Source of the DNA: Candidatus Bathyarchaeota archaeon
GTDB taxonomy: Archaea > Thermoproteota > Bathyarchaeia > 40CM-2-53-6 > RBG-13-38-9
Direction of reading: 5' to 3'
Length of the DNA: 64,000 bases
Assembly: GCA_963807605.1 (NCBI GenBank)
Contig: CAWECG010000004.1
Span: 32,001 to 96,000, forward strand
Of this stretch, positions 35,190-59,755 are shown one piece after another. The notes beneath the pieces were generated by a model. The model was not told where the DNA came from and did no database searches. It worked only from the letters and a program-made list of their open reading frames with translations. A program made the translations under genes and the position numbers. How positions within the stretch are numbered: position 1 is the first letter of the stretch; every line of letters starts with the position of its first letter.

Positions 35190-35194
35190 TCAAA

Positions 35195-36467: not shown

Positions 36468-36477
36468 CGCGCGCGCG

Positions 36478-37426: not shown

Positions 37427-37927
37427 AAGGCTCCCAACAGTACCTCCGACATGATCGCCAGAAGAAAGGAAGGCGGAGCCGAAGGTGGACGGGTGAAACG
37501 ATACATCGAGTTCGAATACAAGTGCAGCCACATACCGTCTTCGATATGTCGTTGTCAAGAACCCATGACTCTGCAGATGCCTGGCCAACGCATTGATCAC
37601 GGTCTTACCTCTTGGTAGCCGAAGGATCTCAAAGATTCCAAGGTCACCCGTCATGAGATTCTTTGAGCTGGAAGTTTGAGTTTTCGGGCAAATACGGAGT
37701 AGATTGAGCATGCAAGTTAATAGAATCAGTATAACCTAAGGAAGTGTCAACCGATGGAAATGTCGTGGTTGTTAAATGACTAGATCAAGAAAAACGGTCT
37801 TAAACGAACGTGTGATAGTCAAAGCATTAGCCAGAAAACTGGAGACAAGAAACAGACTCCTCGGAACGCGCGTGCTGGACAAAGACTTTTGAGCTTGAGG
37901 GGTGATCGCTTGATTGGTGTTTGAGGT

Positions 37928-38251
37928 TTGGAGTCTAGGCTTGCCGACTTCTTGAAGTCCGGTAAGGACTGGGAGAGGAAGGCTACGTCGGTTCCGGGAG
38001 TATTCATTTTAAAGATGCCACCGTACAGAGGTGCTCCGACAAGGTTGGCTGTGGAGTTGAATCCGGTTGATGAAGCTGGTAGACCCACAAAGAAGAGAGG
38101 TGTTCTTTTAAGATCCTCCAGGAGTTGGCTGAATACAAGAAGATTATTGATGATGAGCGGCTTACTAATTTGTTGAAGAACATTGGACTCGATAAGCCCG
38201 AAGCCTGCGAAGAAAGAGGAGGAGAAGAAACCGGACATCATTGAGCTTTAA
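37928..38251 (+). CDS. Hypothetical protein with two compensating frameshifts
   Basis: ..VELNPVDEAGRPTKKRG.. continues in shifted frames ELAEYKKII.. and DSISPK..DIIEL*; SD GAGGT. Confidence 0.6.
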
Positions 38252-38300
38252 TAGAGCAAGACTATATGCCCCCTCAGAAGGAGTGCTGAGAAAAATTTTG

Positions 38301-40419: not shown

Positions 40420-40556
40420 ATGAAATTCAGAATTGTCCAATGAGGCTTTCGAAATAACGGAGCGAGGGATTGTTCTTAGCGCAAGGTGATATAGGCGGTA
40501 ACGTCAAGTTCTCGTCACCTAGGCTCGGTCTAAATGGGTTGTCAAAAATCGTCACC

Positions 40557-41195
40557 TTATCCAGTTGGTTGATAGCTGCGAGTTTGGTTACTTTTGGTTT
40601 CTTTCATTTCCGAAAGGGACTCTAGGGCTTCTTTTGCGACGAATGCAAGTATTACAGCCGTTGCTACATAGTCAACCCATGAAATTCGCCATAGGTAATT
40701 GATCAATAGACCAACGAGCAAGGTCACTGACATTAAGAAACAGGTTGCAGACTCAATTGCGTCTATGATCAAGGGCAGACAGTGGGTAGCTTCGCCGATC
40801 CGTTTCTTCTCATACCATAATAACGGCATGAATACAACTGCAGCAAAAGCAACCGCAATACCGAGCGTGGATGCTTCTGCCTTGATCCCTGTCACGTAGG
40901 AATACGCTGTACCGAACCCGATTATTGGAATTAATGTGAACAGAAGGAAAGCGGTGATTCGTTCAACCTTCTCGTCGCGCTCACTCTTTTCTCCTCTCTT
41001 CCTCCTTCTCAGATAGTCAGCTACAGTGTATGAAGAGATCAGTTCGATGAAACTATCTCCACCGAATGCTAAGAGCGCAAGGCTCCCTGAGAACAATCCT
41101 GCACCTGAGGCTACGAGACTTTCGACCATCATCCATACTACGCTGGCGTATTCTACGAGCAAGCCGCGATGAAGTAACTGAGATTCTTCAGTCAT
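40557..41195 (-). CDS. Cation-efflux (CDF-like) membrane transporter
   Basis: GSLALLAFGGDSFIE, DA.ES..C, W.D. Confidence 0.75.
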   Translation of the reverse strand: MTEESQLLHRGLLVEYASVVWMMVESLVASGAGLFSGSLALLAFGGDSFIELISSYTVADYLRRRKRGEKSERDEKVERITAFLLFTLIPIIGFGTAYSYVTGIKAEASTLGIAVAFAAVVFMPLLWYEKKRIGEATHCLPLIIDAIESATCFLMSVTLLVGLLINYLWRISWVDYVATAVILAFVAKEALESLSEMKETKSNQTRSYQPTG

Positions 41196-41316
41196 GCATC
41201 TGTTTCTTGCTTGCATTCTGTATTAGCGTTATCCATTTGTTTTCGCCCTCGATTTTGATACCTGCTGCCTCAGCGGTAACTTCTTGCGTATTCTTCAGTA
41301 CGTACATCGAAGGGCA

Positions 41317-42381
41317 CTAGTCATCATCCGGAGTATGCTTGTGTCTATGATGAGTATCTGGCCAATGAACATGAGTGTGAGTCACTTCAAGGTGCGTATG
41401 GTCGTGAATGTTCGACTCAGAAACTGTTTCAGAATGTTTGTGTAGATGATGCATTTCACCATGATCGTGCAGATGAATATGGGTCATCGTGTCATGATAA
41501 TGAAGATGTAAATGCTCTTCACTCACTATCAACCAAACTCCAATTATCATAAATCCTGTCGCTGGAAACATCACCCATCCTATCCATTCCCTGAGTATGA
41601 GTAGGGAGGTCACAGCGGCGATGAATGGTGCGAGACTAAAGAATGCTCCAGTCCTGGATGAGCCTAATCCTTCAAGAGCTTTGATGAAGAATACCAAACT
41701 CGCACCATAACTAAAAGCGCCCACCAGAAGGGCAAACACAATCGTGGCATCCAGCGGTATCCTCGTTCCAAGCATTAAAGCAAATGAAAGAGACACGGCT
41801 CCAGCGATTCGGCCTTTGATTTCAGCGAGCTGTACCGGATCTTTGTCGGATAGGTTGCGAGTCAAATTATTGTCTACACCCCAACATACCATTGCAAAGA
41901 CAAGCAATAATGGACCTAGTGGCATGAACCTGCCTTGGCTAGGATCCCAAGTCAAGAATACCCCTGCTACGGTCATACATACCAACGCTATCCACAGACG
42001 TTTTCCCACGGTTTCACTGAAAACGAACGCGGCGATTGCAGCGGTGGCGACCCCTTCTAAGTTTAGCAGTAGGGACGCAGAAAAACCAGAGACAAGCCTC
42101 AGTCCCATCATCATACTTATTGGCGCCAATATTCCACCCGTGATTGTCGCACCGGATAACCAAGGAAAATCCTTCCTGCCCAACGATGCCACTTTATCAT
42201 TCGAGCCAGTCATCATCCTTCTTCCAATAGAATACAAGTATAGACCGACAAATGCACCAAGATAGAGCAAACCAGCCAGGGCCACAGGAGGAATGTCCCT
42301 TACAAGTAGTTTAGCGAGGGGCGGACTGATTCCAAACAATGAAGCAGATATTATGACGAAGACTAATGGTTCTTTATCCAA
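41317..42381 (-). CDS. DMT/EamA transporter with His-rich C-terminal tail
   Basis: 10-TM EamA pattern, WGVDNNLTR; HxH repeats ending HWPDTHHRHKH. Confidence 0.9.
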   Translation of the reverse strand: MDKEPLVFVIISASLFGISPPLAKLLVRDIPPVALAGLLYLGAFVGLYLYSIGRRMMTGSNDKVASLGRKDFPWLSGATITGGILAPISMMMGLRLVSGFSASLLLNLEGVATAAIAAFVFSETVGKRLWIALVCMTVAGVFLTWDPSQGRFMPLGPLLLVFAMVCWGVDNNLTRNLSDKDPVQLAEIKGRIAGAVSLSFALMLGTRIPLDATIVFALLVGAFSYGASLVFFIKALEGLGSSRTGAFFSLAPFIAAVTSLLILREWIGWVMFPATGFMIIGVWLIVSEEHLHLHYHDTMTHIHLHDHGEMHHLHKHSETVSESNIHDHTHLEVTHTHVHWPDTHHRHKHTPDDD

Positions 42382-42947
42382 TTACCTCACATTTGTTGTC
42401 GCGTTTGAGTTGAATACGTTGTTCTTGAATGTTACCTTGCATTCATCAGATGATGTTGCTACCTAGAAATGGTGTGGTGGTGCTCACCAAGGGACACGAC
42501 GACGACACACACAGAATCTAATTGTTTGATTTTGGGTGTCCTCACTAGCGCCTATGTGAAGGCTCCTCTTCCACCCTTGTTCCTGGATGAATATATTTGG
42601 CATGCGCCTATTCGCCCACAGATGGGGCATTATGGCTTCGCATCCAGGCTATCCTCAATCGCGCTAACGTCCACCTTAAGGGACAGTGCTTTCACGAGGA
42701 GGTTTCTCTAGGCCTGACAATAATACAATTATTCATTTATCAATAATTGTCTTTCTATCGCAGTCTAGAATCGTTGAGTAGTGTGACTCCTCATTCACAT
42801 CCAAACCATCAGAAAGGGCGCTCATACAATGGCATGAGCGCCTCCTCTGCAAAAAAACTTCCCATACCATCGCGCTAGATTGAATAACGCGAGCGGTTCA
42901 AGGTAATCATTATATCTAAGCTAGTTAAGGAACAGAATGTGGTAAAT

Positions 42948-43115
42948 ATGCTAAAACATCCAGGACATGAAAAACATCTCTGCAAAATGGTAGTCGGCGA
43001 TATGGAAGACATCGCAAACATCAAACCGCTTGTAAATAATCCGAAGTACATCTGCAGTGGATGTGGAAGAGTGGCCAACAAAGCAGAAAATCTCTGCGCC
43101 CCCACTAGTCTTTAA
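42948..43115 (+). CDS. 55-aa Cys/His metal-binding small protein (absent from ORF track)
   Basis: [12 protein letters not shown]...[21 protein letters not shown]. Confidence 0.75.
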
Positions 43116-43326
43116 AAAACTACGTCGAAAACAAGATCGTGATCAACTCTTCTTTTTTCAAGCGCCCGCTATACGCTCAACAGTTATATTCACAAAGAAT
43201 TCAGAAAAGGGTCTAGTGCTTGCGCTTAGCACGCTACCTTAGCTATTGCGCTAAACACAATCCCGAAGGCATTCGAGATATGATTTAATAGAAGCAACGA
43301 CTGATTTAGATTCTGGTCGATATTGA

Positions 43327-43641
43327 ATGCCGATAGATCCTGAGTTCATGACCAAGGTCAAGAAGCACAGCCAACATAACGGACATGACGTTTGGGGCGA
43401 AGTGAAACCCCCTGAAAAATTGGGAATCCACGGAACCAACGTGGCTGTAGACCACGACCTATGCGACGGTGACGCCACGTGTGCGCAGGTCTGCCCAGTC
43501 AACGTATTCGAAATGATCGATAGCCCTGGTCACCCAACCTCAAACAAGAAATCAGATCCTGTAAGGGAGTCAGAATGCATATACTGTATGGCCTGCGAGA
43601 TACAATGCCCTCCCAAAGCAATCAAAATAACGCAAAAATAG
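43327..43641 (+). CDS. Dicluster ferredoxin of the zinc-containing (Zfx-like) type
   Basis: His-containing N-extension, GIHGTNVAVD.D.C.GD..C..VCP, CIYCMACE.QCP. Confidence 0.85.
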   Translation: MPIDPEFMTKVKKHSQHNGHDVWGEVKPPEKLGIHGTNVAVDHDLCDGDATCAQVCPVNVFEMIDSPGHPTSNKKSDPVRESECIYCMACEIQCPPKAIKITQK

Positions 43642-43699
43642 GAAACCTCAAAGTATTATGCGCTATGTTGGCGCTATTCTTATGCGATGATATATGGTC

Positions 43700-44143
43700 A
43701 TGAAATGACAAGCCATTGCTGCCATCATTGTAGTGTTGGCCATTATTGGTGTCGGGTCCATATACATGGTTCAACAACAGAAGCCTTTACCAACATCATT
43801 TCCAACACCGAATGCAGCACCCACATTAACACCAACTCCGACTCCCACGTCAACACCAACTCCTACTCTATCCCCTACGCCCACCCCAACACCGACCCCC
43901 ACACAATCAGCTGCTGAAGAAGGCCGCATCCGTGACATTGTGAAGGCCTACTATGCCGCATTCAGCCAACATTCAGAAGGAGCCGTAGCAGGATTCTTTA
44001 CGATAGATGGACAGAAGCTGCTCAACAGTGGAAAAGATGGTTCGTTCATAGACCGTGACGCAATAAGGACAGGATTGGCAGGGGGCTTCGGAAATGGCAG
44101 AGACGTAACCATCAAGGAGTTAAACATCACTAAACTACCCTGA
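43700..44143 (+). pseudogene. Membrane-anchored PT-linker plus NTF2/SnoaL-like protein; TGA at codon 3 and 3' end cut by an IS200-like end
   Basis: ATG AAA TGA then hydrophobic helix; (PT)n; IRDIVKAYYAAF....F..DG. Confidence 0.6.
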
Positions 44144-44620
44144 GCTAAAGCTCAGGGGGTTCTATGCTGCTTAGGCTAGGTATTCGCTGAGGGATTTCTG
44201 TTTGAATTGTAGGTAGACGTCGTGGTCCACGGCCTTCCAGTGTTTCCTCTGACTGTGTTCAAGGTAGTACCTGATGACTTCATTCGTGGTGACGCCGACC
44301 GAGCGGTAGAAGTAGCCCGCTGTCCAGAAGGCGTCACCCTAAAGCTTCGCCCTGACCCTGCTCCGGCATTTCTGGCGGATCCGCCTTGAGCTGACGCCTT
44401 TCAGGAGGCGTGCCAGCTCCGAGACGGCCAGATTCTTGCATGCGCCAAGTAAGATGTGGACATGGTCCGGACCGAACTCTATGGCGTGAAGCGCAAAACC
44501 GTATCGGGCCGCGGTCTCGCGGAAGCTCTCCTCGCAGACAAAGCATTCAACATGATTAAATCATATGCTAAGTGGCACTTGGATCGTCTTCGTCGGTAGC
44601 GTAGCAGTTTGCATTGTCGT
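44130..44620 (-). mobile_element. tnpA: Degenerate IS200/IS605-family element (tnpA remnant)
   Basis: Hairpin CCCTGAGCT-AA-AGCTCAGGG (44138-44157); fragments PDHVHI (HUH) and FWTAGYFYRSVG..IRYYLE.Q in shifting frames. Confidence 0.8.
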
Positions 44621-44659
44621 TTACGCTGATCTAAAAGCTCGATTCTACGAGCGCTAAGA

Positions 44660-44929
44660 ATGAACACCAACGAAGAACCCAGATATGATGAAAAGGTGCA
44701 GTTTGCCGAGTTGGTTGGCAAGAGCTTTGTGGTGCTCAACTATGAAGTGTTCCCATCCAAATTCGAGGGCTGTGAGGAGTTCGCGGTCATTCTGATTAGG
44801 CAAAACGGTAGCGAGGCTATCACGACCACCAGCTCAAGGGTGATACTTGACCAGCTTGGAAAGATGAAGGATAAACTGCCGGTAAAGGTGAAGTTTCTGA
44901 GAAAAAATAGATATTTTACATTTAGCTAG
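44660..44929 (+). CDS. Small virus/plasmid-like hypothetical protein (possible OB-fold)
   Basis: Beta-rich; TSSRVILDQL...LPVKV....YFTF; T-tract after stop. Confidence 0.5.
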   Translation: MNTNEEPRYDEKVQFAELVGKSFVVLNYEVFPSKFEGCEEFAVILIRQNGSEAITTTSSRVILDQLGKMKDKLPVKVKFLRKNRYFTFS

Positions 44930-45027
44930 TCTTTTTTCTACAATACTCGTTTTGTCAATCTAGCTTAGGTCCGACGGACATTATTTCAGGCGCGCTTGTT
45001 GCCTACGGATGTGGATTCAAACAAGCG

Positions 45028-45390
45028 TTAATCTAAAATCTTTTTCCTCGCAATCATATCCCTGTTTCTGCCGAATATCCAATAGCTGTAACCGCCATGC
45101 TCAAGCTTTCCACCAGCACTCTGGAGCTTCATGAAAAGCCCCATTGCTTCTTGCATGCTCGCCCACTCCCCTGTTCCCCGCTTCCAAGGCTTCCAGTCAA
45201 TAGCTTGAATATCCAATTCGACTTTCGGCTCTGATACAGCCTGAACGTTCATCTTGATTTGCTTTGCAGCCTCCACAGGCTTATCGAGCGATTGTTCTGG
45301 CGTTGAAGTTATCGTAATTCTAAGCTTCTCGCCGCACTTTGGGCACCTAACGACTGCTTCACTCAAGGATAGTCTCCCCATAGAAGACAT
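45028..45390 (-). CDS. Hypothetical protein with CPKCG zinc knuckle
   Basis: RCPKCG; W-rich C-terminal domain. Confidence 0.55.
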   Translation of the reverse strand: MSSMGRLSLSEAVVRCPKCGEKLRITITSTPEQSLDKPVEAAKQIKMNVQAVSEPKVELDIQAIDWKPWKRGTGEWASMQEAMGLFMKLQSAGGKLEHGGYSYWIFGRNRDMIARKKILD

Positions 45391-45603
45391 AATATCATGA
45401 GCAAAGGCTTTTGAATTAACCTCAGCACTACCAGTGACTCACCATTCTTGCAACGCCTTCAACGCAACCTTCTCATCTTTCAGCTCAATCTGCAAACTTT
45501 GATTACCAAGTGGCCTGATTCGCATCGAGAGTTGAGATGGTTCTTCATGGGAATTAGGCAATAAAGTGATAGCCTGTCTGACAATGTCTGACACCTTCAA
45601 GCC

Positions 45604-45876
45604 TTGGGATTGGCTCTTCAGCAACAAGTGGTTCTCCCAACTCAGTCGGCTCTAAATCATCTTGTTCTACAAAGGCTCAATATTATTGAAAAGAGAATAG
45701 GCAGAATCAGCGAAGAATCTAAAGCTGAAACCAAGCAAGCTCAAGTTGCAAAGCAAGAACTCATCAAATCTCTTGAAGCGCTTCTCGAAAACGTCGGGCG
45801 GAACGCATCGGAGCATGAAAAAGTCCTCAAGAGGCTTAAGGAGCTACCTTCACCAGACGAAAGACAATTTGCCTAG
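45604..45876 (+). CDS. Coiled-coil hypothetical protein, possibly a fragment
   Basis: Charged heptad-like sequence. Confidence 0.35.
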   Translation: MGLALQQQVVLPTQSALNHLVLQRLNIIEKRIGRISEESKAETKQAQVAKQELIKSLEALLENVGRNASEHEKVLKRLKELPSPDERQFA

Positions 45877-45890
45877 ATGATCTCAAATGG

Positions 45891-46604
45891 ATGATGATTT
45901 GGCTTTTCAGTTTCTTCCAAGATAGAAAGTTCCTACATGAATTGTTTCAACTTGTTGCTGAGGAATACAATAGAATTCTGCTTCAGTTATGCAGATTCTA
46001 CCAGAACCATAGGAGTGCATATAACAAGCTCAAACATGGTTTGATGTTTGCTCTCATTCAAATGGAGACTGGACAGGATGTCGTGAAGACGGTCATGACA
46101 TATGATAGATATGATAAGGAAGAATTCTACAGACTTGCAGACTGCTATCGCCCGCCAAAGAATCCCTCTCCACCTGGGATGGACTGGTTCAATCTAGTGT
46201 CCTATTTGCTGCAAGAGAGCCATGTTTTTGAGAAGTATAAGTACGTGAATTCTATGGTGTGGAAGCTGGCTAAAACACTCATCAGGAACTATTTTGATTT
46301 CGGCTCAAACTGTGGTCGTGACTATTTACCTGAGGGTGTGGACGACATTCTGCAATCGAGAAACATGCTGAGAGAGCTTGACAGGTACAAAGAAATAAAA
46401 AACAGACTCTATCCCAAAATGATTTCTCTCTCAATTACACAAGAAATCATACACAATCTTAGAGAAGAAGCATACAGGAAAACTACAGAACATTGGAACG
46501 CCAATCAGATTTCGAATCATTGGTACCCTCCCGTAGAGGAAGATAAGGAAACGTCTTTGCCTCCTAATGAGCCGATTATATCAACGGACTACAATGTGAA
46601 ATAG
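45891..46604 (+). CDS. Hypothetical protein, possible HEPN-like
   Basis: Helical, YNKLKHG motif; AT-rich. Confidence 0.5.
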   Translation: MMIWLFSFFQDRKFLHELFQLVAEEYNRILLQLCRFYQNHRSAYNKLKHGLMFALIQMETGQDVVKTVMTYDRYDKEEFYRLADCYRPPKNPSPPGMDWFNLVSYLLQESHVFEKYKYVNSMVWKLAKTLIRNYFDFGSNCGRDYLPEGVDDILQSRNMLRELDRYKEIKNRLYPKMISLSITQEIIHNLREEAYRKTTEHWNANQISNHWYPPVEEDKETSLPPNEPIISTDYNVK

Positions 46605-46741
46605 CCAACAGACACAAGAGCTAACTTTTTGGGGGCGGTCTCACCAGCTAGCGCACGCTAAAGGAGCTCCTAGGATTCCTATCCTGATGTAAACATGACC
46701 TTCTCACTACATGGTAATGGTACTCCAAGAGGAGATGCGGA

Positions 46742-47500
46742 TTGACCAGAAAGCTTGACCTTGCAAAAACAACCGATGAGAAATGGGACAGTCTGAATGA
46801 CAGCTATAATAGAATAGTCGACAGAATCAATGAAATATCATGCAATCATCACCTACAAACAGCCGCTTTCAGAACCACTGATGGAACTGCCATAAATCTG
46901 AATGAATTCAATGAAAAAATGCTTACCCTACACTACAAATTGAGATATGCCTGTGTCAGTTTGGAATACCTAAGAAATGTATATCGCCAGTTCTCAGATA
47001 CGCTGGACAAGGCCATGAAAGCTATGACCGAATCGATTTCTGAGGATTTCATTTTCCATACTGATGTTTTCTTCATTTTTGGGTACAGCGCATTTGACAT
47101 CGTAGCTGGAATACTTGATATGATGACACAAACTGGTCTTCAGAAGAAGGAAGTCAATTTCTATAACGTAATAGAGGCACTTGCGAGTTCAAATTACTCC
47201 GACACTCATCCAATTTTCAGGACACTGAAACAGGAAAATAAGACAGGATGGATTCGTGAATTTCGACGCTACAGAGTGTTCTTGGTTCACTACTCAACCA
47301 TGCGTCTTCAAAAAGAATTTAAATACACTGCAAGAGACCAAACAATTGAAATCAACTTTTTCCTCTTACCAGATGACCCAGAGAAGAGGCCTTACGAATA
47401 TAACTCCAAAAGAGAACTTGTCCCTTATTGCGAGAAAGTAATGGAAAAAGAACTTGACGCCATAAAGGAACTTTTTGACTTCACTAGAACACTGATTTAG
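46742..47500 (+). CDS. HEPN-domain protein (Cthe_2314-like)
   Basis: All-helical; Rx4H motif RVFLVH preceded by SAFDIVA helix. Confidence 0.6.
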   Translation: MTRKLDLAKTTDEKWDSLNDSYNRIVDRINEISCNHHLQTAAFRTTDGTAINLNEFNEKMLTLHYKLRYACVSLEYLRNVYRQFSDTLDKAMKAMTESISEDFIFHTDVFFIFGYSAFDIVAGILDMMTQTGLQKKEVNFYNVIEALASSNYSDTHPIFRTLKQENKTGWIREFRRYRVFLVHYSTMRLQKEFKYTARDQTIEINFFLLPDDPEKRPYEYNSKRELVPYCEKVMEKELDAIKELFDFTRTLI

Positions 47501-47654
47501 CAGCAATAGCCGGTCTTCTCGACAGGGGAAGAGGGCTTTCTGGGGGGTCTTCCCCTAATGGGGATAGTCAGTCTTGGTGTGGTGGTGCTCACCATCTACA
47601 GTACGCACAAAGAGTATTTCGAATGGATGAATTGCGATTCTACTGCCGCTCGAT

Positions 47655-48332
47655 TCAATTGGAACTTTGTTTGAAGTATTTTCTATAATTACTTTCAAGG
47701 TCACGAAGAGCGTCGTTCTTCAGCCACCCTCTTAGTCTTCTTCTCACGTCCTGCAAGTTCGCTCCTTTCTTGCTAACAACGGAATTGCACCATTCATCAC
47801 CAGTCCTTACCTTTGAATATGGAAACCTTGTGAGGTAAAATCTCCCTTTGCTTGCCAGAGGCTTAACCGGTATGGGAGGCGGCCCTACCGTTACGATTCG
47901 GATTCGGCAGTTGCGCTTTGCTTTCCTATTCCGCTTTGCTTTACTGTTCCAGGCTACAAATTGCTCTAACCCTAAGTCCATAGTGGAATACATGACGAGA
48001 TTCTTTGTTGGCAGCGTCACGTTTTCAAATCGGGCTCTGATTATCTGTACATTCTGCAAAGCTTTCCGCTCTACGTTTTTCTTAGCTCTCCGGAAACGAA
48101 TTGGGTGGGACTCTATGCCGATGGCTGACTTGCAACGTCGTGCAGCCCAGATGCAGACCCATCCGTCGCCGCATCCCAAATCGCAGAAAACGTCTCTCCT
48201 TGTCAACTTCGCAAGTTCGAAGACTCGAATCGCTTCATCATGTGACGTAGCGGTGGGTGAACCTCTCCAATCGCGCATCAAGTTCACTTTGCTACGCATT
48301 TTCACCATGCTACACACACCCTGAAACGACAA
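47655..48332 (-). CDS. Class I SAM-dependent methyltransferase
   Basis: FCDLGCGDG, GIE. Confidence 0.75.
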   Translation of the reverse strand: MSFQGVCSMVKMRSKVNLMRDWRGSPTATSHDEAIRVFELAKLTRRDVFCDLGCGDGWVCIWAARRCKSAIGIESHPIRFRRAKKNVERKALQNVQIIRARFENVTLPTKNLVMYSTMDLGLEQFVAWNSKAKRNRKAKRNCRIRIVTVGPPPIPVKPLASKGRFYLTRFPYSKVRTGDEWCNSVVSKKGANLQDVRRRLRGWLKNDALRDLESNYRKYFKQSSN

Positions 48333-48574
48333 TGGTTACTTACCTAGACCTCCTTTGCACGTTTCTAGGCTTCTTTCTCCCCCTTTTCGTTGTTGCTCCT
48401 TTTTACAAATCTTCCTTCTTCTCATGTCAAACACCTCAAGAAGTAAATCTCGAAAAATAGTCAATTTTTTGCCATTACATTCACTAATAACAGCAATTCG
48501 GTCAAATAGAAGACCAATGCTAACTCATAATTCTAAAAAATCAACTAAATACTAGATTTACTGGAGGACTAACC

Positions 48575-48826
48575 TTGCCCAGAAGAAAAACGTCTGACAT
48601 AATAGCTCACGTTTTGAGTTCTGCTGAGAGTCTAAAGAATAATATTGCTGCCGTACCAGTTGAGATTCAAGACAGAATTAGAGACTTGGCTCTAGTTATA
48701 GTCAACAAACCTGTAAAGAGGCGGGGTCGCCCACCCGGAAGGAAGAGGGGTAGACCTCCTGGAAGAAAGAAAAGGGGCAGACCAAGGAAGAGGGCAAAAG
48801 CAGTAGAGACGCCAACACAAGCCTAA
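48575..48826 (+). CDS. Small basic protein with three AT-hooks, copy 1
   Basis: KRRGRPP, RKRGRPP, KKRGRPRK; SD GGAGG; paralog at 53430. Confidence 0.85.
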   Translation: MPRRKTSDIIAHVLSSAESLKNNIAAVPVEIQDRIRDLALVIVNKPVKRRGRPPGRKRGRPPGRKKRGRPRKRAKAVETPTQA

Positions 48827-48998
48827 TCGCGAAACATATTCTTTTTTGTTTCTGCAGCTTCCAGAGGATCATCTGTTGAAGAAGGTATTGATGGTGAGGA
48901 TGATAGCCTATCCACTGCTGACTTAGTGTAATGTCAGGGTTTTGTTCTCAATTCCTTCTCCAGCATGTCGTCTTCGAGTATCTTGCTTCGCATCAATT

Positions 48999-49806
48999 TC
49001 AGCGATTGATACGTGTCACGCTTCTGAGAAGCAGGGAAGTGTCCACGCTCCTCCCGTACAGGGTTAATGCGCCTCTATCTTTCAAGACATCTCGGAGGGT
49101 ATCCGTTACGAGGTCCGTGAGGCCGAACTCCACTGCAAGAGCGCGGATCTGCGCGTAGTCCATCGCGTCCTTCATTATGCTTCTCCTTTCTTTGGGGTCA
49201 AGCAACGCAATGATGTCAGAGCCATCCTTGGCAACCTTGCCTCTCAGCCACGCTAGCCTGGCAGCATTCATAGTGGCGCCTTTGGTTCTGATATCGTACT
49301 GCCTGTCACGCCTGGCCTTTACCTTGAACAGTGCTAGAAGTGCCTTGCTCGGAACGTAGCAGGCGCAGTCTCTCGCTATGCTGATCTCCCTCTTGCAACC
49401 ATCCCTCTCACAGAGGGAATAGGGAAGGGCCTTCGAGCCACCCTCGTGGAATTGACTCGCACCGCTGCGTTCGTAGGTGCACGCATCGATTTCCATGTCT
49501 CCTATCTTTCTCCCTCCCTTCGAGTAGATCGGTTTGCTGGCTGTTATCTCTGTCCCGAGCGCATCCTGTTGCAGGATTTCGTACCCGTGAGACTTTTCGT
49601 ATCCCTCGATTATCTCGTCGAACGCGTCCCTGTGGCTCGAATCCAACCACGTCGATGTCGACGGAACCGTAATAGGGGTTGTAGAAGTATACTGCCCAGC
49701 CCCCTACTATGACAGGTGCTCCGAAATGTCGGAAATAGCGAACGAAACTGACGAGTTCCCGGTAAGATGTCCTTACCGGCGCTGGCCCTTTCGGAGTTCC
49801 GCTCAT
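48999..49806 (-). CDS. Nucleotidyltransferase (AbiEii-like toxin), frameshift near 49645
   Basis: VIVGGWAV...SVDIDVV; continues in ORF 48999-49646 (LFKVKA...KD..D). Confidence 0.7.
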
Positions 49807-50426
49807 CTTCCTTTTTTTATCTCCTCGTATAGCTTCATCGCGCCATCCCTGCCCGCTCCTCCCAGGCAGAACAAATCTATAACGACCTGAACAGGTTCGA
49901 CCAGAACAAATTCCTTGATTCGTCTCGCGTTCTGCAGGATTAGCTCCGAGTCCGGGCTGAGAACCTGTATCGTTACGTCGCCTCTTCCCCTGGGAATCCG
50001 ATTCGCAAGTTCGAGTGGCTTCTGGGAGTAAACGTGCACCGACGGATACGTGATGTAGTACTCGACGTACTTGGCGAGCGCGGAAAAGGCAGTCAGCGCA
50101 TACCCGCCCGTATGCACTACAGCGTTCCTGACCATTCTTTCGATTTTCGATATCTCCGACTCCTCGGTTCTGACCTCCGAAACAACTAGCTTGGAGAGCG
50201 GCCGCTCCGTCGAGAGAACCTCCAGCAACCTGAGTGAATCACTAAGCTCCAAGTGTCCCTTCCCTCTCTGCGCGACTATCCCGGGCGCCTCAATCTCGCT
50301 GATGACGTGATTTACTAGATTCCTGGAGACGCCTGCCTTCCTTGAGATTTCAATCTGGGAAGTCTGAGGGTGTGTCAGCAGGTATGCTACAACCTTGTAG
50401 GTCTGCGGGGAGGTTAGTCTGACCAA
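49803..50426 (-). CDS. HTH protein, AbiEi-like antitoxin
   Basis: N-terminal HTH (SQIEISRKAGVSRNLV); YALTAFSA, VHVY, VQVVIDL...GG; overlaps toxin start. Confidence 0.72.
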   Translation of the reverse strand: MVRLTSPQTYKVVAYLLTHPQTSQIEISRKAGVSRNLVNHVISEIEAPGIVAQRGKGHLELSDSLRLLEVLSTERPLSKLVVSEVRTEESEISKIERMVRNAVVHTGGYALTAFSALAKYVEYYITYPSVHVYSQKPLELANRIPRGRGDVTIQVLSPDSELILQNARRIKEFVLVEPVQVVIDLFCLGGAGRDGAMKLYEEIKKGR

Positions 50427-50581
50427 TTCTCTTCCTGTCGTCCTTCGCGCTGGGTCATATTTAAAGAAATCCCATATTCATGGGATTATCCCATAAACAT
50501 GGGATAACCAACGGCGCGAAGACGCGTTGCGACCCCACTTCGGCACTACTGCGGTTAAGAGCACCGCACCACCTTACTCTC

Positions 50582-50812
50582 ATGAAATCAAAAACTACGC
50601 TCCAGAACAATGGGACTGTAGGCATACGCGCGTTCAAGAATGGGCTCAAGAAGAAGCTCCCTCCCGACAGCCCCGTCCTGATGGACCTCCTCCATGAGCC
50701 AGACTCGATGCCCCTCACCAGGGCTGATGTCCTGATTCCGCACTACCTGCAGAGGCTGGAGAGGGAACTCGAGAAGTACGAGTCGTCAGGACCCGTGGTT
50801 CTGCGTTCATGA
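50582..50812 (+). CDS. Small element-associated protein, paralog of 35195-35359
   Basis: IRAFK...KLPPDSPV..DL..EPD. Confidence 0.55.
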   Translation: MKSKTTLQNNGTVGIRAFKNGLKKKLPPDSPVLMDLLHEPDSMPLTRADVLIPHYLQRLERELEKYESSGPVVLRS

Positions 50813-50903
50813 TCTAGCTAGCCCGTCTTTATCCCAATCACGACCTTGTCATTAGGCAGGTCTCGCTTGTAGTCCCAGCCTTGCTCTATCTACAGTTTCA
50901 AAT

Positions 50904-51330
50904 GTGTATGCTCAACTACCAGTATTGCCATCAGGTACAACGGTGGCCAGCAACATCAATGACTACCTTATTGCTGTGACATTGGCTGTCTTTCTTGCTG
51001 CTAGCACAGATCTCCTTCAGAATTACTTCGTACTTCATGAGAGCTGGAAGACGTTTGCATTGGCCAGCTTCTTTACCGGATTGATCTTGCTCTTGATGTT
51101 CATAATGTGTTTTTTTTGGGCGCAGTATTGCAGAAATGCAGACGCTGAAAGATGTCGCAATGTTGCCCTCCCCACAGGTCGTTGACCAAGGACAAGTTGC
51201 GACGACTTTGGCTAATTTCAAAAAGGAGCTAGAAGATGCGATCGCCCTAAGTAAAGAAGATGCTGACAAAAATCTTCGACTACTGGAAAAGATCAAGAAA
51301 GCTCAGGTCAAGATTTCTGACAAACCTTAG
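50904..51330 (+). pseudogene. Membrane hypothetical protein split by a frameshift in a T-run
   Basis: Overlapping ORFs 50904-51185 and 51136-51330; poly-T near 51110. Confidence 0.35.
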
Positions 51331-51553
51331 CGCCCGCTAACCAAACATATATCGAATTTATTGTGAATACATAAGCAGTATATGGTTATGTGTCCGCCCT
51401 CGCTGGTGAAAACATCCAGATTTGAACCGTTAGGAATTGATTTTGTGTGTCACACCTTAGCTGGTGAGCAAACTCAGATTTCTATAGCCTATTCGCGGCT
51501 TCAATGCTTCAACAGTCGTCTCACAGCACAAGTGAAAAAAATCTTGACAATTG

Positions 51554-52003
51554 CTATAGTGAAGCAGCTATATCGGCTGCGATTTGTCTAAACGTTTCTT
51601 CCGCACCTTCTTCGAGCCGTGCCTCTTTCGAATTGAATACGGCTGAGGCATGTGGTCGGACAACATTCATTCCTAGTTTCTCTAGCCTTGCCTCTATCTT
51701 CTTTCCAGCACTGCCAGCGAATTTGCTCTTCAGTTTGGTGTCAAACGCGAATGCTTTCTTACCATGGAGATCTGTACCTTCCAGTTCTTTAAGGAGGATC
51801 TTCATAGGTTTGGACAGACCAAACGCGTGCGTCGGTCCACCTACCGCCAGTAAATCATACTCATTCAATCTACCGATCTGGACCTCTTTGACGTTAATGC
51901 AGTCGGCTTCGACCCCTTTCTTCGTCATTCCTTCTGCTAACGCCTTCGCTATCTTTTCTGTATTTCCGAATTTTGTATCGTAGATCACCATCGCTTTCGT
52001 CAT
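51554..52003 (-). CDS. Flavodoxin-domain protein
   Basis: IYDTKFGNTEKIA, VGGPTH, AFDT. Confidence 0.9.
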   Translation of the reverse strand: MTKAMVIYDTKFGNTEKIAKALAEGMTKKGVEADCINVKEVQIGRLNEYDLLAVGGPTHAFGLSKPMKILLKELEGTDLHGKKAFAFDTKLKSKFAGSAGKKIEARLEKLGMNVVRPHASAVFNSKEARLEEGAEETFRQIAADIAASL

Positions 52004-52337
52004 CTATGATTACCGTTGAAGAGTTCTGGCGGTGACACTATTTATGATTTGAATTTGGTCTGAAGCTGCGCTATGGGTTTTGATCTTAGCTGGTGGTGGC
52101 ACCCTTGGCGAGAGCGTCGTAATTTGAACTGTCAGATTTGATTCGTGTGTGAAGAGATGAAAAGTCTAGTTCTAGTGACATGTTGATTCTCTGTGGTTGG
52201 TAAGCCTTAAACCAACCCGTCACTCCACGGTACGAAAATCATAGTATGTAACTCACTCTAAATGTTTACTTGATATACAGTCACGCTTGCATCTTTGATA
52301 AGAAAGCTTTTGTGAAACAGAATATCAATAACACTAC

Positions 52338-53129
52338 ATGATTAAAATTGAGTCATACGAGGATGTAAGACAGATCACTGCTAGCGTTACGCTATTTGGT
52401 AAAGAAGTCTTTTCTACTAATTCTTATGTTGTAGCCAATCTTCTAATTGATACCGGTCCCGCTAAACTGTCTGAGAAATTTCTGAAAGTCTTGGAACCTT
52501 TTACCGTTAAAAAAGTAGTGAATACTCATGCCCATTCAGATCATATTGGATCAAATTATGCATTTCCCTTTGTTTTTGCACATCCTGAAGGCTTTGAAAG
52601 GTTGAAGAATCCTAAACTCGAAATGATAATAGAGAGATTCCTACTCGGTCTGCCTAAACCATGCAACCCTAGAGAGGTTCCGGCAAAGATTGCTGCGGAT
52701 AACTTCACATTGAACGTGTTACATACACCAGGGCATTCACCAGATCATATATCCTTGTATGAACCGGATCGGAGATGGGTTTTCACTGGAGATTTGTTGC
52801 TATGGAGTCGTACCCGAGAAGTCTTTAAGGACGTAAAGATATATGATGCAATCGAGTCTCTGCGCCGTTTATCTAAGTTGAAAATTGAAATACTATTTCC
52901 CGGACATGGGCCTCCTTTCAAAAATCCGAACGAAGCCTTGAGAATGCAGGTGGAAACTCTAGAAACATTTGAAACACAGATAAGAAAGGCTTATGAAAGG
53001 GGATTATATGCTGAGGAAATTCGGAATGAAATGTTTGGGAAAGAAAGAATGTTTACATATCTTTGTGGAGGGAAATTCTCTGCTTTAAATTTAGTGAATA
53101 GTTTCCTTAAGAATGGGGAAGGATGTTAG
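52338..53129 (+). CDS. MBL-fold metallo-hydrolase
   Basis: THAHSDHIG, TPGHSPDH, FTGD, PGHG. Confidence 0.92.
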   Translation: MIKIESYEDVRQITASVTLFGKEVFSTNSYVVANLLIDTGPAKLSEKFLKVLEPFTVKKVVNTHAHSDHIGSNYAFPFVFAHPEGFERLKNPKLEMIIERFLLGLPKPCNPREVPAKIAADNFTLNVLHTPGHSPDHISLYEPDRRWVFTGDLLLWSRTREVFKDVKIYDAIESLRRLSKLKIEILFPGHGPPFKNPNEALRMQVETLETFETQIRKAYERGLYAEEIRNEMFGKERMFTYLCGGKFSALNLVNSFLKNGEGC

Positions 53130-53429
53130 ACCCTTATTGATTTGGGGTTCCGTATGAGAACTATGTAAGATTCATTGTATGATGAGAACTAAGGTCTGGA
53201 AAGGAAATCTCACTTCAATCTAGAAATGTTCATGTGGATGTCCACGTCGAAGAACCCGTATCCACATGGACACCCCAAACAGCCAGTTATTCATATCCCC
53301 CTATAGCTGGTGAGTGTGTGGGATAGCTGGTGAGAGCATTCAAGATTTGAACTATCAATATATCATACGCATATTGAAAGGAGTGGTATTAAATACGGTA
53401 CGAATGAACAAGATAATAGTGCTATCAAT

Positions 53430-53675
53430 ATGCCTAGACGGAAGAGTTCAAGCATAATATCTGAAGTGCTAACCGCCGCTGAAAGCTTAAGGAACGGTCT
53501 AAACGCTGTCCCAGCTGAGGTTCAAGACAGAATTAGAGACTTGGCTCTAGTTATACTCAACAAACCTGTAAAGAGGCGGGGTCGCCCACCAGGAAAGCGA
53601 AGGGGAAGACCGAGAAAGAAGAGGGGAAGACCAAGGAAGAGGGCAAAAGCAGTAGAGTCGCCGCCACAAGCCTAA
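53430..53675 (+). CDS. Small basic protein with three AT-hooks, copy 2
   Basis: KRRGRPP, KRRGRPRK, KRGRPRK; 3' half and downstream DNA near-identical to copy 1. Confidence 0.85.
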   Translation: MPRRKSSSIISEVLTAAESLRNGLNAVPAEVQDRIRDLALVILNKPVKRRGRPPGKRRGRPRKKRGRPRKRAKAVESPPQA

Positions 53676-54223
53676 TCGCGAAATATATTCCTTTTTGTTT
53701 CTGCAGCGATCTTTTCAACTATCGCAATTTCCGCCATTTCTCTCTCGTCCAACGGTCGTTTTTCTACCACAGCAATATTCTTGATACCTTCAACATAACC
53801 TTCTATGTAACCATCCATATTGTCCATGAACTCCTTCTCGGTCTTTGGAATCCTTCTTCTACCTCTAGTCGGAACAGTTCACTTGACCGCAATAATATAT
53901 GGCACAATTTCACTAGTCAATACGTCTCTTGCATCCCCATAGTTGCTTTTTTGATTGCAGCACTATCCTCAATTTCATTCTACGTAGTCTGTCCAGTGAC
54001 AACAATCAGACTCATTCATAGGAAGGCAATCCAGCTCCACCTCCCCACATGCGAAGACCTTCCCTCTTCACCTTCCCAATCAAACCTCTAGCGTCCCTCG
54101 GCCCCCTCTCGAAGAAAAGCTGCCCAGCTGAGAGAGTAGAAACGATCCTTGACCGTTCCAGGATCATTGAAAAAGGAACTGTGGATTGAACACGCAGAAC
54201 TCGCAGTAGACTAGAAAGCTGCA

Positions 54224-55172
54224 CTCCTAACTAACTGGAATTCAACGCGGCTGGTGATTGTAGCGTGCCCAAGCAACTCCACGATCGCTTCACGTCTTCT
54301 TGCTGAGTGCAAATGCAAAGAATGCCAAGTAGGCCAATCCTATTGCCAGATAGCCGTACGCTTCTGGCCATCGAACAACTGTTCCATGCTTGACGTATAC
54401 GTCCAGGAGGGCACCCATCGGTATGAATATCGGCCACTGATTCAAGACACTCCTCGTCGTTCTGAAGACAGCCGCGTAGACTATCCCTACAACAAACAGA
54501 GTCATGATATTCTCGGGTGTCGCCCATCCTGGATAGCCGATGTGATAGAGTGAGTACATCGCAGATGCGATCAATATGCCAGGTATGATTCCGAAGGCCC
54601 TGTTAAACCTCAGTTGAAGGAATCCTCGGAAGAAGACGGCTTCAAAGAATCCGCTCACAAGGACAAGCATCAACAATGGCGGGAGTATACCCAGATCCCC
54701 CAGCCTTGATACACCTGCGCCGATAAGCGGGGGCATCACGAACACTATTGTTGCCACCAGTCCAATAAGGATGCTAAGCTTCCATCTCTGCTTGGTTATT
54801 CCAATCTCTCGAAAGGCTTCTCTCCTCAAGAATCTGATGTAACCTACCGGGATGAGAACCCCAGCAAAGAATAGGAGACCAACATCGTAGAATATGATGG
54901 CATCAATCATTGACGCTCGGGCGAAAGCAAGATAATTGAAAAGGACGACGAGAGCCCACGCCCCAATCGCGACTAGCAAACTCTTGTCAGGCGAATATCT
55001 GACCGCCAGAACCTGCTTGCATTTCATGCTTCGTTGGTCGATTTGAGGCTGGTGAAAAGGTTTACGATAGGATCGATCCTTCGTGAACTCTAAAAAGCAA
55101 AGCGTCGTCGATTGTTCATAGGTGGCTCGTCGAGAAGTCACAACGGTCCAGACTCGCCTTGCAAAAGACGGA
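54224..55172 (+). repeat. ~950-bp direct repeat, copy B
   Basis: Colinear with 36478-37426. Confidence 0.95.
54290..55027 (-). CDS. CPBP intramembrane protease, copy B
   Basis: Near-identical to copy A. Confidence 0.85.
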   Translation of the reverse strand: MKCKQVLAVRYSPDKSLLVAIGAWALVVLFNYLAFARASMIDAIIFYDVGLLFFAGVLIPVGYIRFLRREAFREIGITKQRWKLSILIGLVATIVFVMPPLIGAGVSRLGDLGILPPLLMLVLVSGFFEAVFFRGFLQLRFNRAFGIIPGILIASAMYSLYHIGYPGWATPENIMTLFVVGIVYAAVFRTTRSVLNQWPIFIPMGALLDVYVKHGTVVRWPEAYGYLAIGLAYLAFFAFALSKKT

Positions 55173-55369
55173 CAGACTTCCACGATCCCCACCAAAGAGC
55201 CAAATTACCTATATCCCCCTCACCAGCTTGGGCGCACACACAACGATGTACGAATAAGGGCCTGGAGCGATGGATAAGGAATCTCCCAGCGGCCTCCCCA
55301 TCTGTCTCAAGTTGCGGTGAAATGTTATTAGCCACCCGTAAGAGTGGTGTTGGGGGTCGGTTTTCGGCA

Positions 55370-55950
55370 ATGTCCGAGAAGTCCAGAATTAGGACCTTCT
55401 CAGATTATGTGTTCGGACTTGTAGTGGTCTTCAGCAGCTTCTCACTGACTAACAGCGTCATTCAGGCGCCAGTCGATCTTGTCAGTAGTATAGCGTTGTT
55501 TACTTTGAGTTTTGCGATCTTGATCACAGTGTGGCTCATATATGACGGCCTGATGGCCAAACTTCGTGTGGAAACCAGCACGGCCCTGGCTCTAAACATC
55601 ATATTATTGTTTCTCGCGGTGTTGGAGCCTTTCCTGTTGAACATCGTTTTTTGAACCCTAGGGTCTCCGATTTCGCGTCTACTTGCTATGCCATTGATAT
55701 GGGTGGTCTGCTTGGAATATGTGCTCTGCTAGCTCATATGCTTGCAATAGACAGCCGCAACGCGCTTTCGGTGGAGGTGTCAAAGACTCTCAGGTCCGAG
55801 AGGAATCTGTTCGCGATTGTTGCTGCGATTTTCGTTGTGTCGACCGCGCCTTTGCTAGTGACCTTCACGTTTTTGGGTTGGACATTGCGAGCATGGCTAT
55901 GGGTGGCGATGTTGTTCGTGTACCCCATCAGAAGAGCGACTTCACGATAA
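55370..55950 (+). CDS. TMEM175-family potassium channel, frameshift in T6 run near 55650
   Basis: SRIRTFSD (RxxxFSD) signature; TM helices continue in ORF 55651-55950. Confidence 0.72.
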
Positions 55951-56084
55951 CTAGCGCGTGATAGCGCGCCCGAGGTTTGCGGTTGTTCAGGCCTCCTCGT
56001 GGCGTGACGGTCTCTGTTAAATGGTATCGGAATAACTAACAAGTGTTTTATACCTGTTACAAGGAGAGCTTGTTGGTAATTCTG

Positions 56085-57203
56085 ATGTCTATTACGGGTA
56101 AGCTTCCACTAACCCTACTATTGATGATGGTGATTGTCTCAGCAGGCTCCCTCATCCAGTTGCAGCCTGCCTCCGCAACCTTTCCAGGAGCTAACGGCAA
56201 GATAGTATTCTCAAGAATCATCGGAACCCTTCCAACTTTAACCACTCCAACTATTTTCGCTCCAACCCCTCCAACTATACCCTATCAACTTGAGATCTTC
56301 ACTGTGAACCCTGACGGCTCAGGCTTAACTCAGCTTACCTCGACCGGGCCAGGCATGGCTAATTCATACCCACGTTGGTCTGCGGACGGTACAAAAATAG
56401 TATTCTCAAGCTTCAGGACTGGCGTATCCGCGATCTGGGTGATGAATGCTAACGGATCAGGACAGAATCAAATAACCCATCCACCACCTTCTACACGTAA
56501 CTATGAACCGGCCTTTTCTCCAGACGGATCAAAGATTGTATTCACAAACGCATCATCAACTACTACTAACATTTGGGTGACTAATGTTGACGGCTCAAAC
56601 CAGAAGCAACTGACTATAGGATCTGAGACAGACACTTTTCCTGTCTGGTCTCCTGACGGGTCGAAGATAGCATTTATGAGATATCCGGTATCCGGCAACG
56701 AACACATCTTTGTAATGAATCCTGACGGCTCAGGCCAGACCGACATAAGCAAGGATCCTACTGCACAAGACTACTACCCTGAATGGTCCCCCAACGGAGG
56801 GATGATTGCATTCAGTAGCTTCCCCAGTCTTGCGATATGGGTGATGAATGCTGACGGATCAGGCAGAAAGCAACTGAGCACTCCTCCTAATGGAGTGTCA
56901 GATTTCTATCCCGCTTGGTCTCCTGACGGAACAAAGATCGCATTCGCCAGAGGCGAACTCGCTAGCATAATTGTGATGAATGCAGACGGCTCAAACCCGA
57001 CTGATATAACCCAATCACAGCCAAACTCAACCACAGACACTACTCCAAATTGGCAGCCTCTGTTCCTGCCTCCGCCCGCAAGACCTGTAGGCGGTGTAAC
57101 CCTACCAACCAACAAGCTTGAGATCCTAACACCCTCCCTAACCTTAGCAGGACTAGCCGCTGCAGTATCCGCAGTTGTAGTAGTTAAGAGAAGAAGAGAC
57201 TAA
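56085..57203 (+). CDS. Secreted TolB-like (PD40 repeat) beta-propeller with PVGG C-terminal anchor
   Basis: Signal peptide, ATFPGANGKI, repeated P.WSPDG.KI.F, PVGG...NKL..TM..KRRRD. Confidence 0.9.
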   Translation: MSITGKLPLTLLLMMVIVSAGSLIQLQPASATFPGANGKIVFSRIIGTLPTLTTPTIFAPTPPTIPYQLEIFTVNPDGSGLTQLTSTGPGMANSYPRWSADGTKIVFSSFRTGVSAIWVMNANGSGQNQITHPPPSTRNYEPAFSPDGSKIVFTNASSTTTNIWVTNVDGSNQKQLTIGSETDTFPVWSPDGSKIAFMRYPVSGNEHIFVMNPDGSGQTDISKDPTAQDYYPEWSPNGGMIAFSSFPSLAIWVMNADGSGRKQLSTPPNGVSDFYPAWSPDGTKIAFARGELASIIVMNADGSNPTDITQSQPNSTTDTTPNWQPLFLPPPARPVGGVTLPTNKLEILTPSLTLAGLAAAVSAVVVVKRRRD

Positions 57204-57445
57204 CCAAAACATCCTTTATCTTTTTTCGTAACTTCCTAGGATACTTTCTTTTTTGAGGCTGTCCTTCTTGCCTATCCTCCTGTGTCGTTATGCCCCTACA
57301 TATGTAGAGACAGAATAGGTTCGGTTCAACTATAATCGAACCAGATCTCACCACGACGTGCCAGTAACAAAGAATTTAAGATGGAAAATCGTATTATTTA
57401 GAAACGTTGAGTCTGGAATGACTTTTTCCATGAAAAAAGGGCAGG

Positions 57446-57486
57446 ATTTGAACCCTAATGGGTTCAAATACCACCGGGTCCACCAC
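57446..57486. repeat. Right attachment site with palindrome ATTTGAACCC-TAAT-GGGTTCAAAT
   Basis: Copy of the tRNA-Ile2 3' end preceded by an inverted copy of its T-arm. Confidence 0.85.
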
Positions 57487-58708: not shown

Positions 58709-58993
58709 TCAACTGGATTTTGTGAGAGTTATCTCGATTGTAGAGACGGACCTAGTTCCGCCCTCTTCCATGGGTATGTCTTCTGTCCCGACGTTTACTT
58801 TCTCGATCTTAAGGTTTTCCATGAATCTACGTCTAGTTATCTCGGCGACATCAACAGCGGTTGATATGGCCTGCCCTCTGGCCTTGAGGGTGACTTCCTT
58901 CGTCTCTCCCCCGCCGAAGAGGGTTATCACAGCCAGCACATAGTTCATGGTCGGCTTTCGTCCTATGAATACTGTATTCGGTTCCCTTGACAT
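58709..58993 (-). CDS. albA: DNA/RNA-binding protein Alba
   Basis: VFIGRKP.MNYVLA, LKARG.AIS.AVDVAE, VS.IEI.L. Confidence 0.97.
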   Translation of the reverse strand: MSREPNTVFIGRKPTMNYVLAVITLFGGGETKEVTLKARGQAISTAVDVAEITRRRFMENLKIEKVNVGTEDIPMEEGGTRSVSTIEITLTKSS

Positions 58994-59539: not shown

Positions 59540-59755
59540 ATGACTGATAATGAACTCTCAACAGCTGCCATACACCGGCTCATCGAGAAAGCAGGAGCTG
59601 CAAGAGTCGGCGACGGTGCCGTGGAAGTATTGAGAGAAGTACTTGAAAACATGGCCGTTCAGATAAGCAAGGATGCAATCGATTTTGCATCTCATGCAGG
59701 CAGAAGAACTGTGAGAGCTGAAGACATCAAACTTGCAGCAAAGAAATTCGCATAA
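59540..59755 (+). CDS. Archaeal histone (HMf family)
   Basis: EL..AAI.RLI.KAGA.RV...A...HAGRRTV.AEDIKLA. Confidence 0.95.

Follow-up and report, generated by a model that had tools for sequence, protein, structure and literature searches.

The stretch of DNA analysed here, a window of 64,000 nucleotides (positions 32001-96000 of contig C4 in G000, a 2.65 Mb, five-contig host genome from Bathyarchaeia, with contigs cited below as C1-C4), raises the question of why an integrated island in an archaeal genome carries two genes for small, basic proteins with tandem AT-hooks, where these genes originated and what their products might do. As a moderately probable answer, we propose that they encode a dimerising, minor-groove-binding architectural protein, paralogs of which have been captured by integrative elements. 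Paralog A (48575..48826 in window coordinates, plus strand) codes for 83 residues from a TTG start with GGAGG seven nucleotides ahead, and paralog B (53430..53675, plus strand) codes for 81 residues from an ATG start with a TATA-like ATTAAATA about 40 nucleotides upstream. The two proteins are identical at 58 of 83 positions (~70%; E=8e-24 in BLASTP) and each holds three RGRP cores with K/R flanks, in agreement with an earlier reading of this DNA from its letters alone (the sequence-only reading), which had claimed two paralogs of these lengths with three hooks apiece at these positions. Their DNA identity is 93-100% between roughly codon 30 and a point 32 nucleotides beyond the stop (repeat families D3 and D5), which bears out the near-identical 3' halves and roughly 30 bp of downstream sequence noted in that reading, and falls to about 55-65% over the 5' third. 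The ratio of nonsynonymous to synonymous substitution rates (dN/dS) between the two copies is 0.21 at a synonymous divergence (dS) of 0.65, indicative of purifying selection; for A versus B and B versus the paralog at C1:219123 it is 0.18-0.23 over a dS range of 0.28-1.05. In the N-terminal domain it lies between 0.09 and 0.54 over all paralog pairs, and the low value for A versus B (0.18 with dS ~1) implies that selection acts on the plus-strand frame. The frames of both copies are unbroken and are accompanied by promoter-like boxes and T-run terminators. Given the dN/dS of 0.21 and the 41 homologs recovered at E<=0.01 in a word-indexed search, these open reading frames are beyond chance, and both are real genes under selection.

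The architecture of the encoded proteins suggests a folded module joined to a DNA-binding tail. AlphaFold2, run on the monomer with the family alignment, predicts a two-helix hairpin at residues ~6-43 (helices 6-26 and 29-43; predicted local distance difference test score, pLDDT, 88-92) followed by a disordered tail (pLDDT <60), and this model, along with the RGRP cores in the alignment, upholds the helical N-terminal domain plus three AT-hooks previously read from the sequence. The hairpin is preceded by a basic N-terminal arm (MPRRK), of which the start M1-P2-R3 is near-invariant in the family. The tail has 17 lysines and arginines against a single acidic residue, a net charge of about +16, and the whole protein has an isoelectric point of 12. 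In the family alignment, A17, E18 and L20 of helix 1 are invariant, as is G51-R52-P53 of the first hook across the 41 members, which have between zero and six GRP cores each, mostly two or three. The hook cores are of the canonical RGRP kind with R/K flanks, that is, of the DNA type; the Pfam AT_hook model (PF02178), which at 13 residues is too short for significance, matches two of the 41 members at E<=1, with a best value of 0.0022. The hairpin is very hydrophobic, and its hydrophobic helix faces, particularly the run LALVIL in helix 2, suggest burial in an oligomer. Judging from the model, a ribbon-helix-helix (RHH) identity of the N-terminal domain is unlikely: the first helix begins at residue 6, with no space for a strand in this monomer model, where one formed only in a dimer would be possible, and the RHH models of Pfam found no match in the family. 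A Foldseek search of the PDB with the model yielded no match, and the ESM Atlas gave scores of <=0.84 to unnamed clusters only. After the hook array, many members share a short, conserved, non-basic C-terminal peptide (for example ...K-x-E-A/T-x-x-Q-A/V/M), which may be a docking motif.

The family defined by these proteins is narrow. The 41 homologs are 72-103 residues long and, where their source is named, all come from Bathyarchaeota or Bathyarchaeia. An exhaustive comparison of a HMMER family profile with 1.84 billion cluster representatives retrieved 31 clusters at E<=1e-3, of which about 25 are true full-length members (clusters at 50% identity), and no fusion to another domain was seen among the 31. 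With copy B as the single query, no loci were found in viral or metagenome contigs and one, syntenic, in genome contigs. As far as searched, the family is thus found almost only in one order of Bathyarchaeia. Pfam, NCBIfam, PHROGs and a PDB sequence profile search provided no family assignment, and a literature search returned no paper tying AT-hooks to an archaeal nucleoid protein, so that the earlier description of the protein as undescribed still stands. What is new here is the narrowly distributed archaeal family and its N-terminal domain; the AT-hook as a DNA-binding motif is already known.

We then examined the genomic context of the family beyond the window. The gene is present in 20 of 301 genomes of the class, among them 12 of the 14 that belong to the host's own family, where it nearly always gives a single match per genome. 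Its neighbourhood is conserved in relatives, with a ThiI-like ATPase with an NFACT-R domain upstream (at a distance of 177-876 nucleotides) and, downstream, a DUF167 (YggU) gene in convergent orientation and a gene for a DUF255 thioredoxin-like protein, an arrangement kept in six to eight loci. The host genome retains a copy with these very neighbours at C3:1096198-1096428, which in a maximum-likelihood tree groups with the orthologs of other genomes (99/90).

In total, G000 has six full copies (C1:219123, C3:187320, C3:423045, C3:1096198 and the window copies A and B) together with relics. Three of the six lie among ordinary genes: the syntenic C3:1096198, C1:219123 between a ClC channel and UvrB/UvrA, and C3:187320, whose hooks are degenerate, between a glycosyltransferase and FBA/PFK. 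Among the remnants are a chimeric frame of 111 codons at C3:424416-424751 (minus strand), 1.1 kb from the paralog C3:423045, in which the last ~45 residues correspond to helix 2 and the first hook of the family and the N-terminus is unrelated, and the 3' end (~19 codons) of an AT-hook gene of island type at C4:445838-445894 (88% DNA identity). In the tree, which rests on an alignment of just 84 columns and lacks resolution in its deeper forks, the six copies share one clade (92/92); A, B, C1:219123 and C3:423045 form a sister group (82/86) with the metagenomic protein P0003, the closest relative from outside the genome. Comparison of the copies in windows of 30 nucleotides revealed that codons ~3-28 of copy A are 77-90% identical to the chromosomal-type genes C3:187320 and C3:1096198 and just 53-67% identical to the island-type genes (copy B, C1:219123, C3:423045), whereas from about codon 30 onwards copy A is 88-100% identical to copy B. 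By this pattern of identities copy A is evidently a mosaic with a chromosomal-type 5' end and an island-type 3' end. The differing 5' and identical 3' halves of A and B are therefore attributable to recombination or gene conversion between paralog types, and not to N-terminal halves that had diverged in place, as the sequence-only reading had supposed. Such recombination between copies suggests that the N-terminal domains are interchangeable.

Both window genes reside in an integrated island of 23.6 kb (33891..57486). It adjoins an intron-containing transfer RNA (tRNA) gene (33767..33890, plus strand), whose 3' end at 33862-33890 constitutes the left attachment site, attL; the right site, attR (57458..57486, plus strand), is identical to it at 27 of 29 bases, a direct repeat for which the chance expectation is 0 matches. 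Directly after the tRNA gene is an intact island integrase of 422 residues (33921..35189, plus strand), a divergent tyrosine recombinase with 39% identity to a 516-residue paralog at C4:439720-441267 and 22% (E=5e-14) to a 466-residue protein at C3:421537. In an alignment of six integrases R165, R287, H314 and Y322 are invariant, and the corresponding profile matches two XerA structures from archaea, 4a8e (E=6.5e-12) and 5hxy (E=4.7e-9). In the related genomes G167 and G200 homology to the window ends at the tRNA gene (33889-33891) and restarts at 57600-57629, and the same site is occupied by 1.5-1.8 kb of unrelated DNA versus the 23.6 kb found here. Since the island is missing at this site in both relatives, A and B lie within a genome-specific integrated island, and the earlier placement of the two genes on a mobile element is supported by the attachment repeat, the integrase and this absence. 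As cargo the island combines a patchwork of host-like genes with the remains of a second integrase, and is on this evidence probably composite and partly decayed.

The ends of the two AT-hook genes clarify how they may have travelled. On the minus strand beside copy A is an integrase 3'-end relic (48827..48858) consisting of its last 11 codons and stop (48823-48825); this stop overlaps that of copy A itself, and on the plus strand the same stretch provides a T-run of the kind that ends archaeal transcription. Likewise, copy B stands tail to tail with, and overlaps by its stop, a C-terminal remnant of a XerA-like tyrosine integrase (53672..53857, minus strand), 65% identical to residues 402-461 of the 466-residue integrase at C3:421537-422937. 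The conserved ~32 nucleotides downstream of A and B are thus explained as the end of a decayed integrase gene on the minus strand. That integrase, which scores above the Pfam Phage_integrase threshold and matches the NCBIfam XerA family, is itself part of an intact module (C3:421537-423296) in which it runs on the plus strand (421537-422937) convergently with the AT-hook paralog on the minus strand (423045-423296), beside a tRNA gene and a second integrase. From this shared arrangement we conclude that the unit that spread was a module of an integrase gene tail to tail with an AT-hook gene. In the window modules the integrase has decayed to 11 and ~60 codons with the AT-hook genes intact, and the relic at C4:445838-445894 is 4.6 kb from the 516-residue integrase.

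Several known systems offer points of comparison for the AT-hook protein. HMGA proteins are fully disordered, with an acidic C-terminal tail, and their AT-hooks bind the minor groove of A/T tracts. Like HMGA (HMG-I/Y), the archaeal proteins are small and very basic and have three RGRP cores with K/R flanks, from which minor-groove binding and an architectural role might be expected; unlike HMGA, they have a predicted N-terminal hairpin and a tail with 17 basic residues to one acidic, and no homology was detected outside the motif. Myxococcus xanthus CarD, a protein of ~300 residues, contains an HMGA-type domain, an acidic region and an RNA-polymerase-binding CarD_CdnL_TRCF N-terminal domain (PMC2919716, PMC4374960). 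It is likewise prokaryotic and combines a folded N-terminal domain with a C-terminal run of AT-hooks, but the N-terminal domain here is an unrelated hairpin of 40 residues, without a Pfam match in any of the 41 members. Closer in layout are H-NS and Lsr2, which couple an oligomerisation domain to an AT-hook-like minor-groove reader (PMC6936261, PMC4466236), since the present proteins, too, join a putative N-terminal helical oligomerisation module to an AT-hook-type reader. Plasmids are also known to carry the H-NS/MvaT paralogs Sfh, H-NS(R27) and Pmr (PMC6936261, section 5.2.1), which is comparable to the chromosomal core copy and the extra paralogs on mobile elements seen here. However, the reader of H-NS and Lsr2 is a single Q/RGR loop in a folded C-terminal domain, in place of tandem canonical hooks in a disordered tail, and H-NS, Lsr2 and MvaT differ further in that no relation of sequence or fold connects them to our proteins, whose archaeal host uses histone and Alba and whose island is not AT-rich. 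Membership in H-NS, Lsr2, MvaT or Rok found no support from Pfam or NCBIfam (at E<=10 or E<=1) or from the PDB profile search. A further likeness, to archaeal tRNA-targeting elements with XerA-like or pNOB8-type integrases, lies in the tRNA 3'-half repeat, the integrase by attL and the insertion relative to related genomes; it concerns the carrier and not the AT-hook protein.

In light of the AT-hook chemistry of HMGA and of the H-NS and Lsr2 loops (PMC6936261), together with the hydrophobic helix faces, we infer that the protein binds DNA and dimerises. The hydrophobic hairpin would join at least two chains into a helical bundle, and the hook tails would enter the minor groove of short A/T tracts; the resulting oligomer, with at least six hooks per particle, could clamp, bend or bridge AT-rich DNA, for example promoter TATA regions, and the AT-hook protein might by this means join histone and Alba in tuning chromatin and transcription. 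Both histone and Alba are available in the host, as stated in the sequence-only reading: just outside the island are an Alba gene (58793..58978, minus strand) and a histone-fold gene (59552..59737, plus strand), the sole PF00808 match in the genome. The island copies would be host-derived, nucleoid-type paralogs captured and kept by integrative elements, and may act like the plasmid-borne H-NS/MvaT paralogs Sfh and Pmr (PMC6936261). A more specific version of this proposal, which we consider rather unlikely, has the element-borne copies heterodimerise with the host copy via the shared hairpin and in this way either buffer host chromatin binding on the element or redirect it, as an archaeal counterpart of the 'stealth' H-NS-like proteins and the first archaeal AT-hook nucleoid-associated family. 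We consider the mobile-element context to be real but secondary, and the proposed function to be plausible.

Several observations weigh against an architectural DNA-binding protein with element-borne paralogs. The island has a guanine-plus-cytosine (GC) content of 46.9% against a genomic value of 47.1% (39th percentile among windows of 23.6 kb) and 6.6 A/T runs of at least six per kb versus 6.2 (67th percentile); higher AT content is limited to local patches at 45-48.5 kb and 51-54 kb, and the DNA at 49-51 kb is richer in GC. Because it is not AT-rich, the island presents no special target for an AT-binder, and the AT-rich cargo that the sequence-only reading had envisaged falls away. Two near-complete genomes of the host's family, G078 and G236, are without the gene, which is therefore dispensable. 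RGR-rich tails are also able to bind RNA, and a wide VIA-align search with the predicted fold returned generic helical hairpins only (Z<=5.5, including NblA, the CapH C-terminal domain, GapR and TraM), an uninformative outcome. Moreover, the link between AT-hook gene and integrase is seen in this genome only: host-type integrases occur in the 8-9 kb flanks of 0 of 15 loci of other genomes, and among 105 genomes of the order such an integrase is present in 32 and beside the AT-hook gene in none. The sequence-only reading had looked to the distribution of homologs and to integrase linkage, and of these homologs do exist (the 41 above), whereas the linkage is confined to G000. Based on the conserved synteny and the missing integrase link elsewhere, the gene is fundamentally chromosomal and passed on vertically, mainly single-copy and with housekeeping neighbours, and does not encode the mobile-element protein that had been implied. 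To our knowledge, no AT-hook protein is among the chromatin proteins described in archaea (histones, Alba, Cren7/Sul7, MC1, HTa and TrmBL2); if the proposed function is true, a hairpin with AT-hooks would represent a new class of minor-groove reader in archaeal chromatin, albeit a lineage-specific one, and an independent archaeal case of the bacterial pattern in which mobile elements bear paralogs of host nucleoid proteins. The significance is limited by the narrowness of the family and by a function that is deduced; at about 80 residues, recombinant production is feasible and the biochemistry accessible despite the uncultured host.

Other functions deserve consideration. The sequence-only reading favoured a xenogeneic silencer that coats AT-rich foreign DNA, or island copies that antagonise such a silencer of the host. 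The pairing of a putative oligomerisation domain with AT-hook motifs does mirror H-NS and Lsr2 (PMC6936261, PMC4466236), and three copies are on integrase-bearing islands, but with GC content and A/T-tract density that match the genome, the island lacks any compositional handle for telling self from foreign, and the gene is mainly a single chromosomal one, with half of the G000 copies among ordinary genes; we judge this function improbable. We attach a similarly low probability to a recombination cofactor that would resemble IHF, Xis or a recombination directionality factor and bend attachment-site DNA for the adjacent XerA-like integrase. It would account for the tail-to-tail pair, intact at C3:421537-423296 and represented by relics beside A and B, and for the further AT-hook 3'-end relic near another integrase; against it, orthologs elsewhere have no integrase within at least 8 kb, the genes of the pair are convergent and not co-transcribed, and A and B remain under purifying selection though their partner integrase has decayed.

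Two further possibilities concern the tail and the copy number. The product might instead be a small, basic RNA-binding or ribonucleoprotein-associated protein whose RGR-rich tail sits on structured RNA, as extended AT-hooks bind RNA and the syntenic ThiI-like neighbour is itself RNA-linked through its NFACT-R RNA-binding domain; we regard this as decidedly improbable, given that no operon with that neighbour is apparent across the 177-876 nucleotides between them, that the DUF167 gene is convergent and that canonical RGRP cores with R/K flanks are those of a DNA-type hook. Very improbable, finally, is that the copies are passenger duplicates, neutral by-products of recombination among repeats: relics and chimeras do occur in G000 (C3:424416-424751, C4:445838 and the degenerate hooks of C3:187320), but a dN/dS of 0.18-0.23 and the intact frames, promoter-like boxes and T-run terminators of A and B speak against neutrality. 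The proposal of an architectural minor-groove binder accordingly remains the one that we prefer.

Around copies A and B we made a number of additional observations. Divergent from copy A is a class I S-adenosylmethionine-dependent methyltransferase gene (47655-48332, minus strand) with a weak, sub-threshold match to DOT1 (19 bits against a cut-off of 23); a conserved pairing of this gene with the AT-hook gene was ruled out, as the methyltransferase is unique in the genome and stands beside no other paralog. Between A and B a GC-rich patch (48999-50426, minus strand; 53-54% GC against 47% in the genome), unlike the rest of the island, encodes a 215-residue protein without a family match and a 207-residue winged-helix protein. 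At 53210-53315, 115-220 nucleotides upstream of copy B, is a dispersed repeat of ~90-100 nucleotides, present in at least 13 copies that are 78-87% identical and contain internal inverted repeats. One copy (C3:187158-187226) is ~95 nucleotides upstream of the paralog C3:187320, another (C1:288994-289091) abuts an integrase frame (C1:287788-289002), and there are about 10 more places; Rfam has no match to it, and it may be an element resembling miniature inverted-repeat transposable elements that mediates the rearrangements. Adjoining the integrase relic by copy B, an 88-nucleotide stretch (53835-53922) is 99% identical to C2:10215-10302 and 85% to C1:415788-415868; contig C2 (88.8 kb, 45.7% GC) contains several integrase copies and fragments.

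The island and its flanks show further features. At attR, segments of the tRNA T-loop (GGGTTCAAAT...) are arranged head to head at 57441-57455 (minus strand) and 57460-57474 (plus strand), forming an inverted repeat that may be the core bound by the integrase. A 300-nucleotide direct repeat (95% identical; 36475-36774 and 54221-54520) within the island covers the 3' parts of two genes for CPBP/Rce1-like proteases (36544-37533 and 54290-55195), and an exact 20-nucleotide direct repeat, TGGTGTGGTGGTGCTCACCA, for which none is expected by chance, recurs at 42470-42489 and 47575-47594, 5.1 kb apart. Over the whole genome, Alba is expanded in G000, with seven PF01918 matches above the cut-off versus one histone-fold gene. 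To the left, a second intron-containing tRNA gene is present at 33461-33563 (minus strand); both such genes were identified with Rfam, which places the target gene at 33767-33886, and ARAGORN with default settings reported neither. Immediately to the left of the target tRNA gene, at 32733-33257 (minus strand), is a gene for a PCC/PPC-domain protein (PF03479, E=9e-13). In plant AHL proteins this domain is fused to AT-hooks; here it is encoded by a separate, conserved chromosomal gene that 15 of 16 genomes from the host's family possess.

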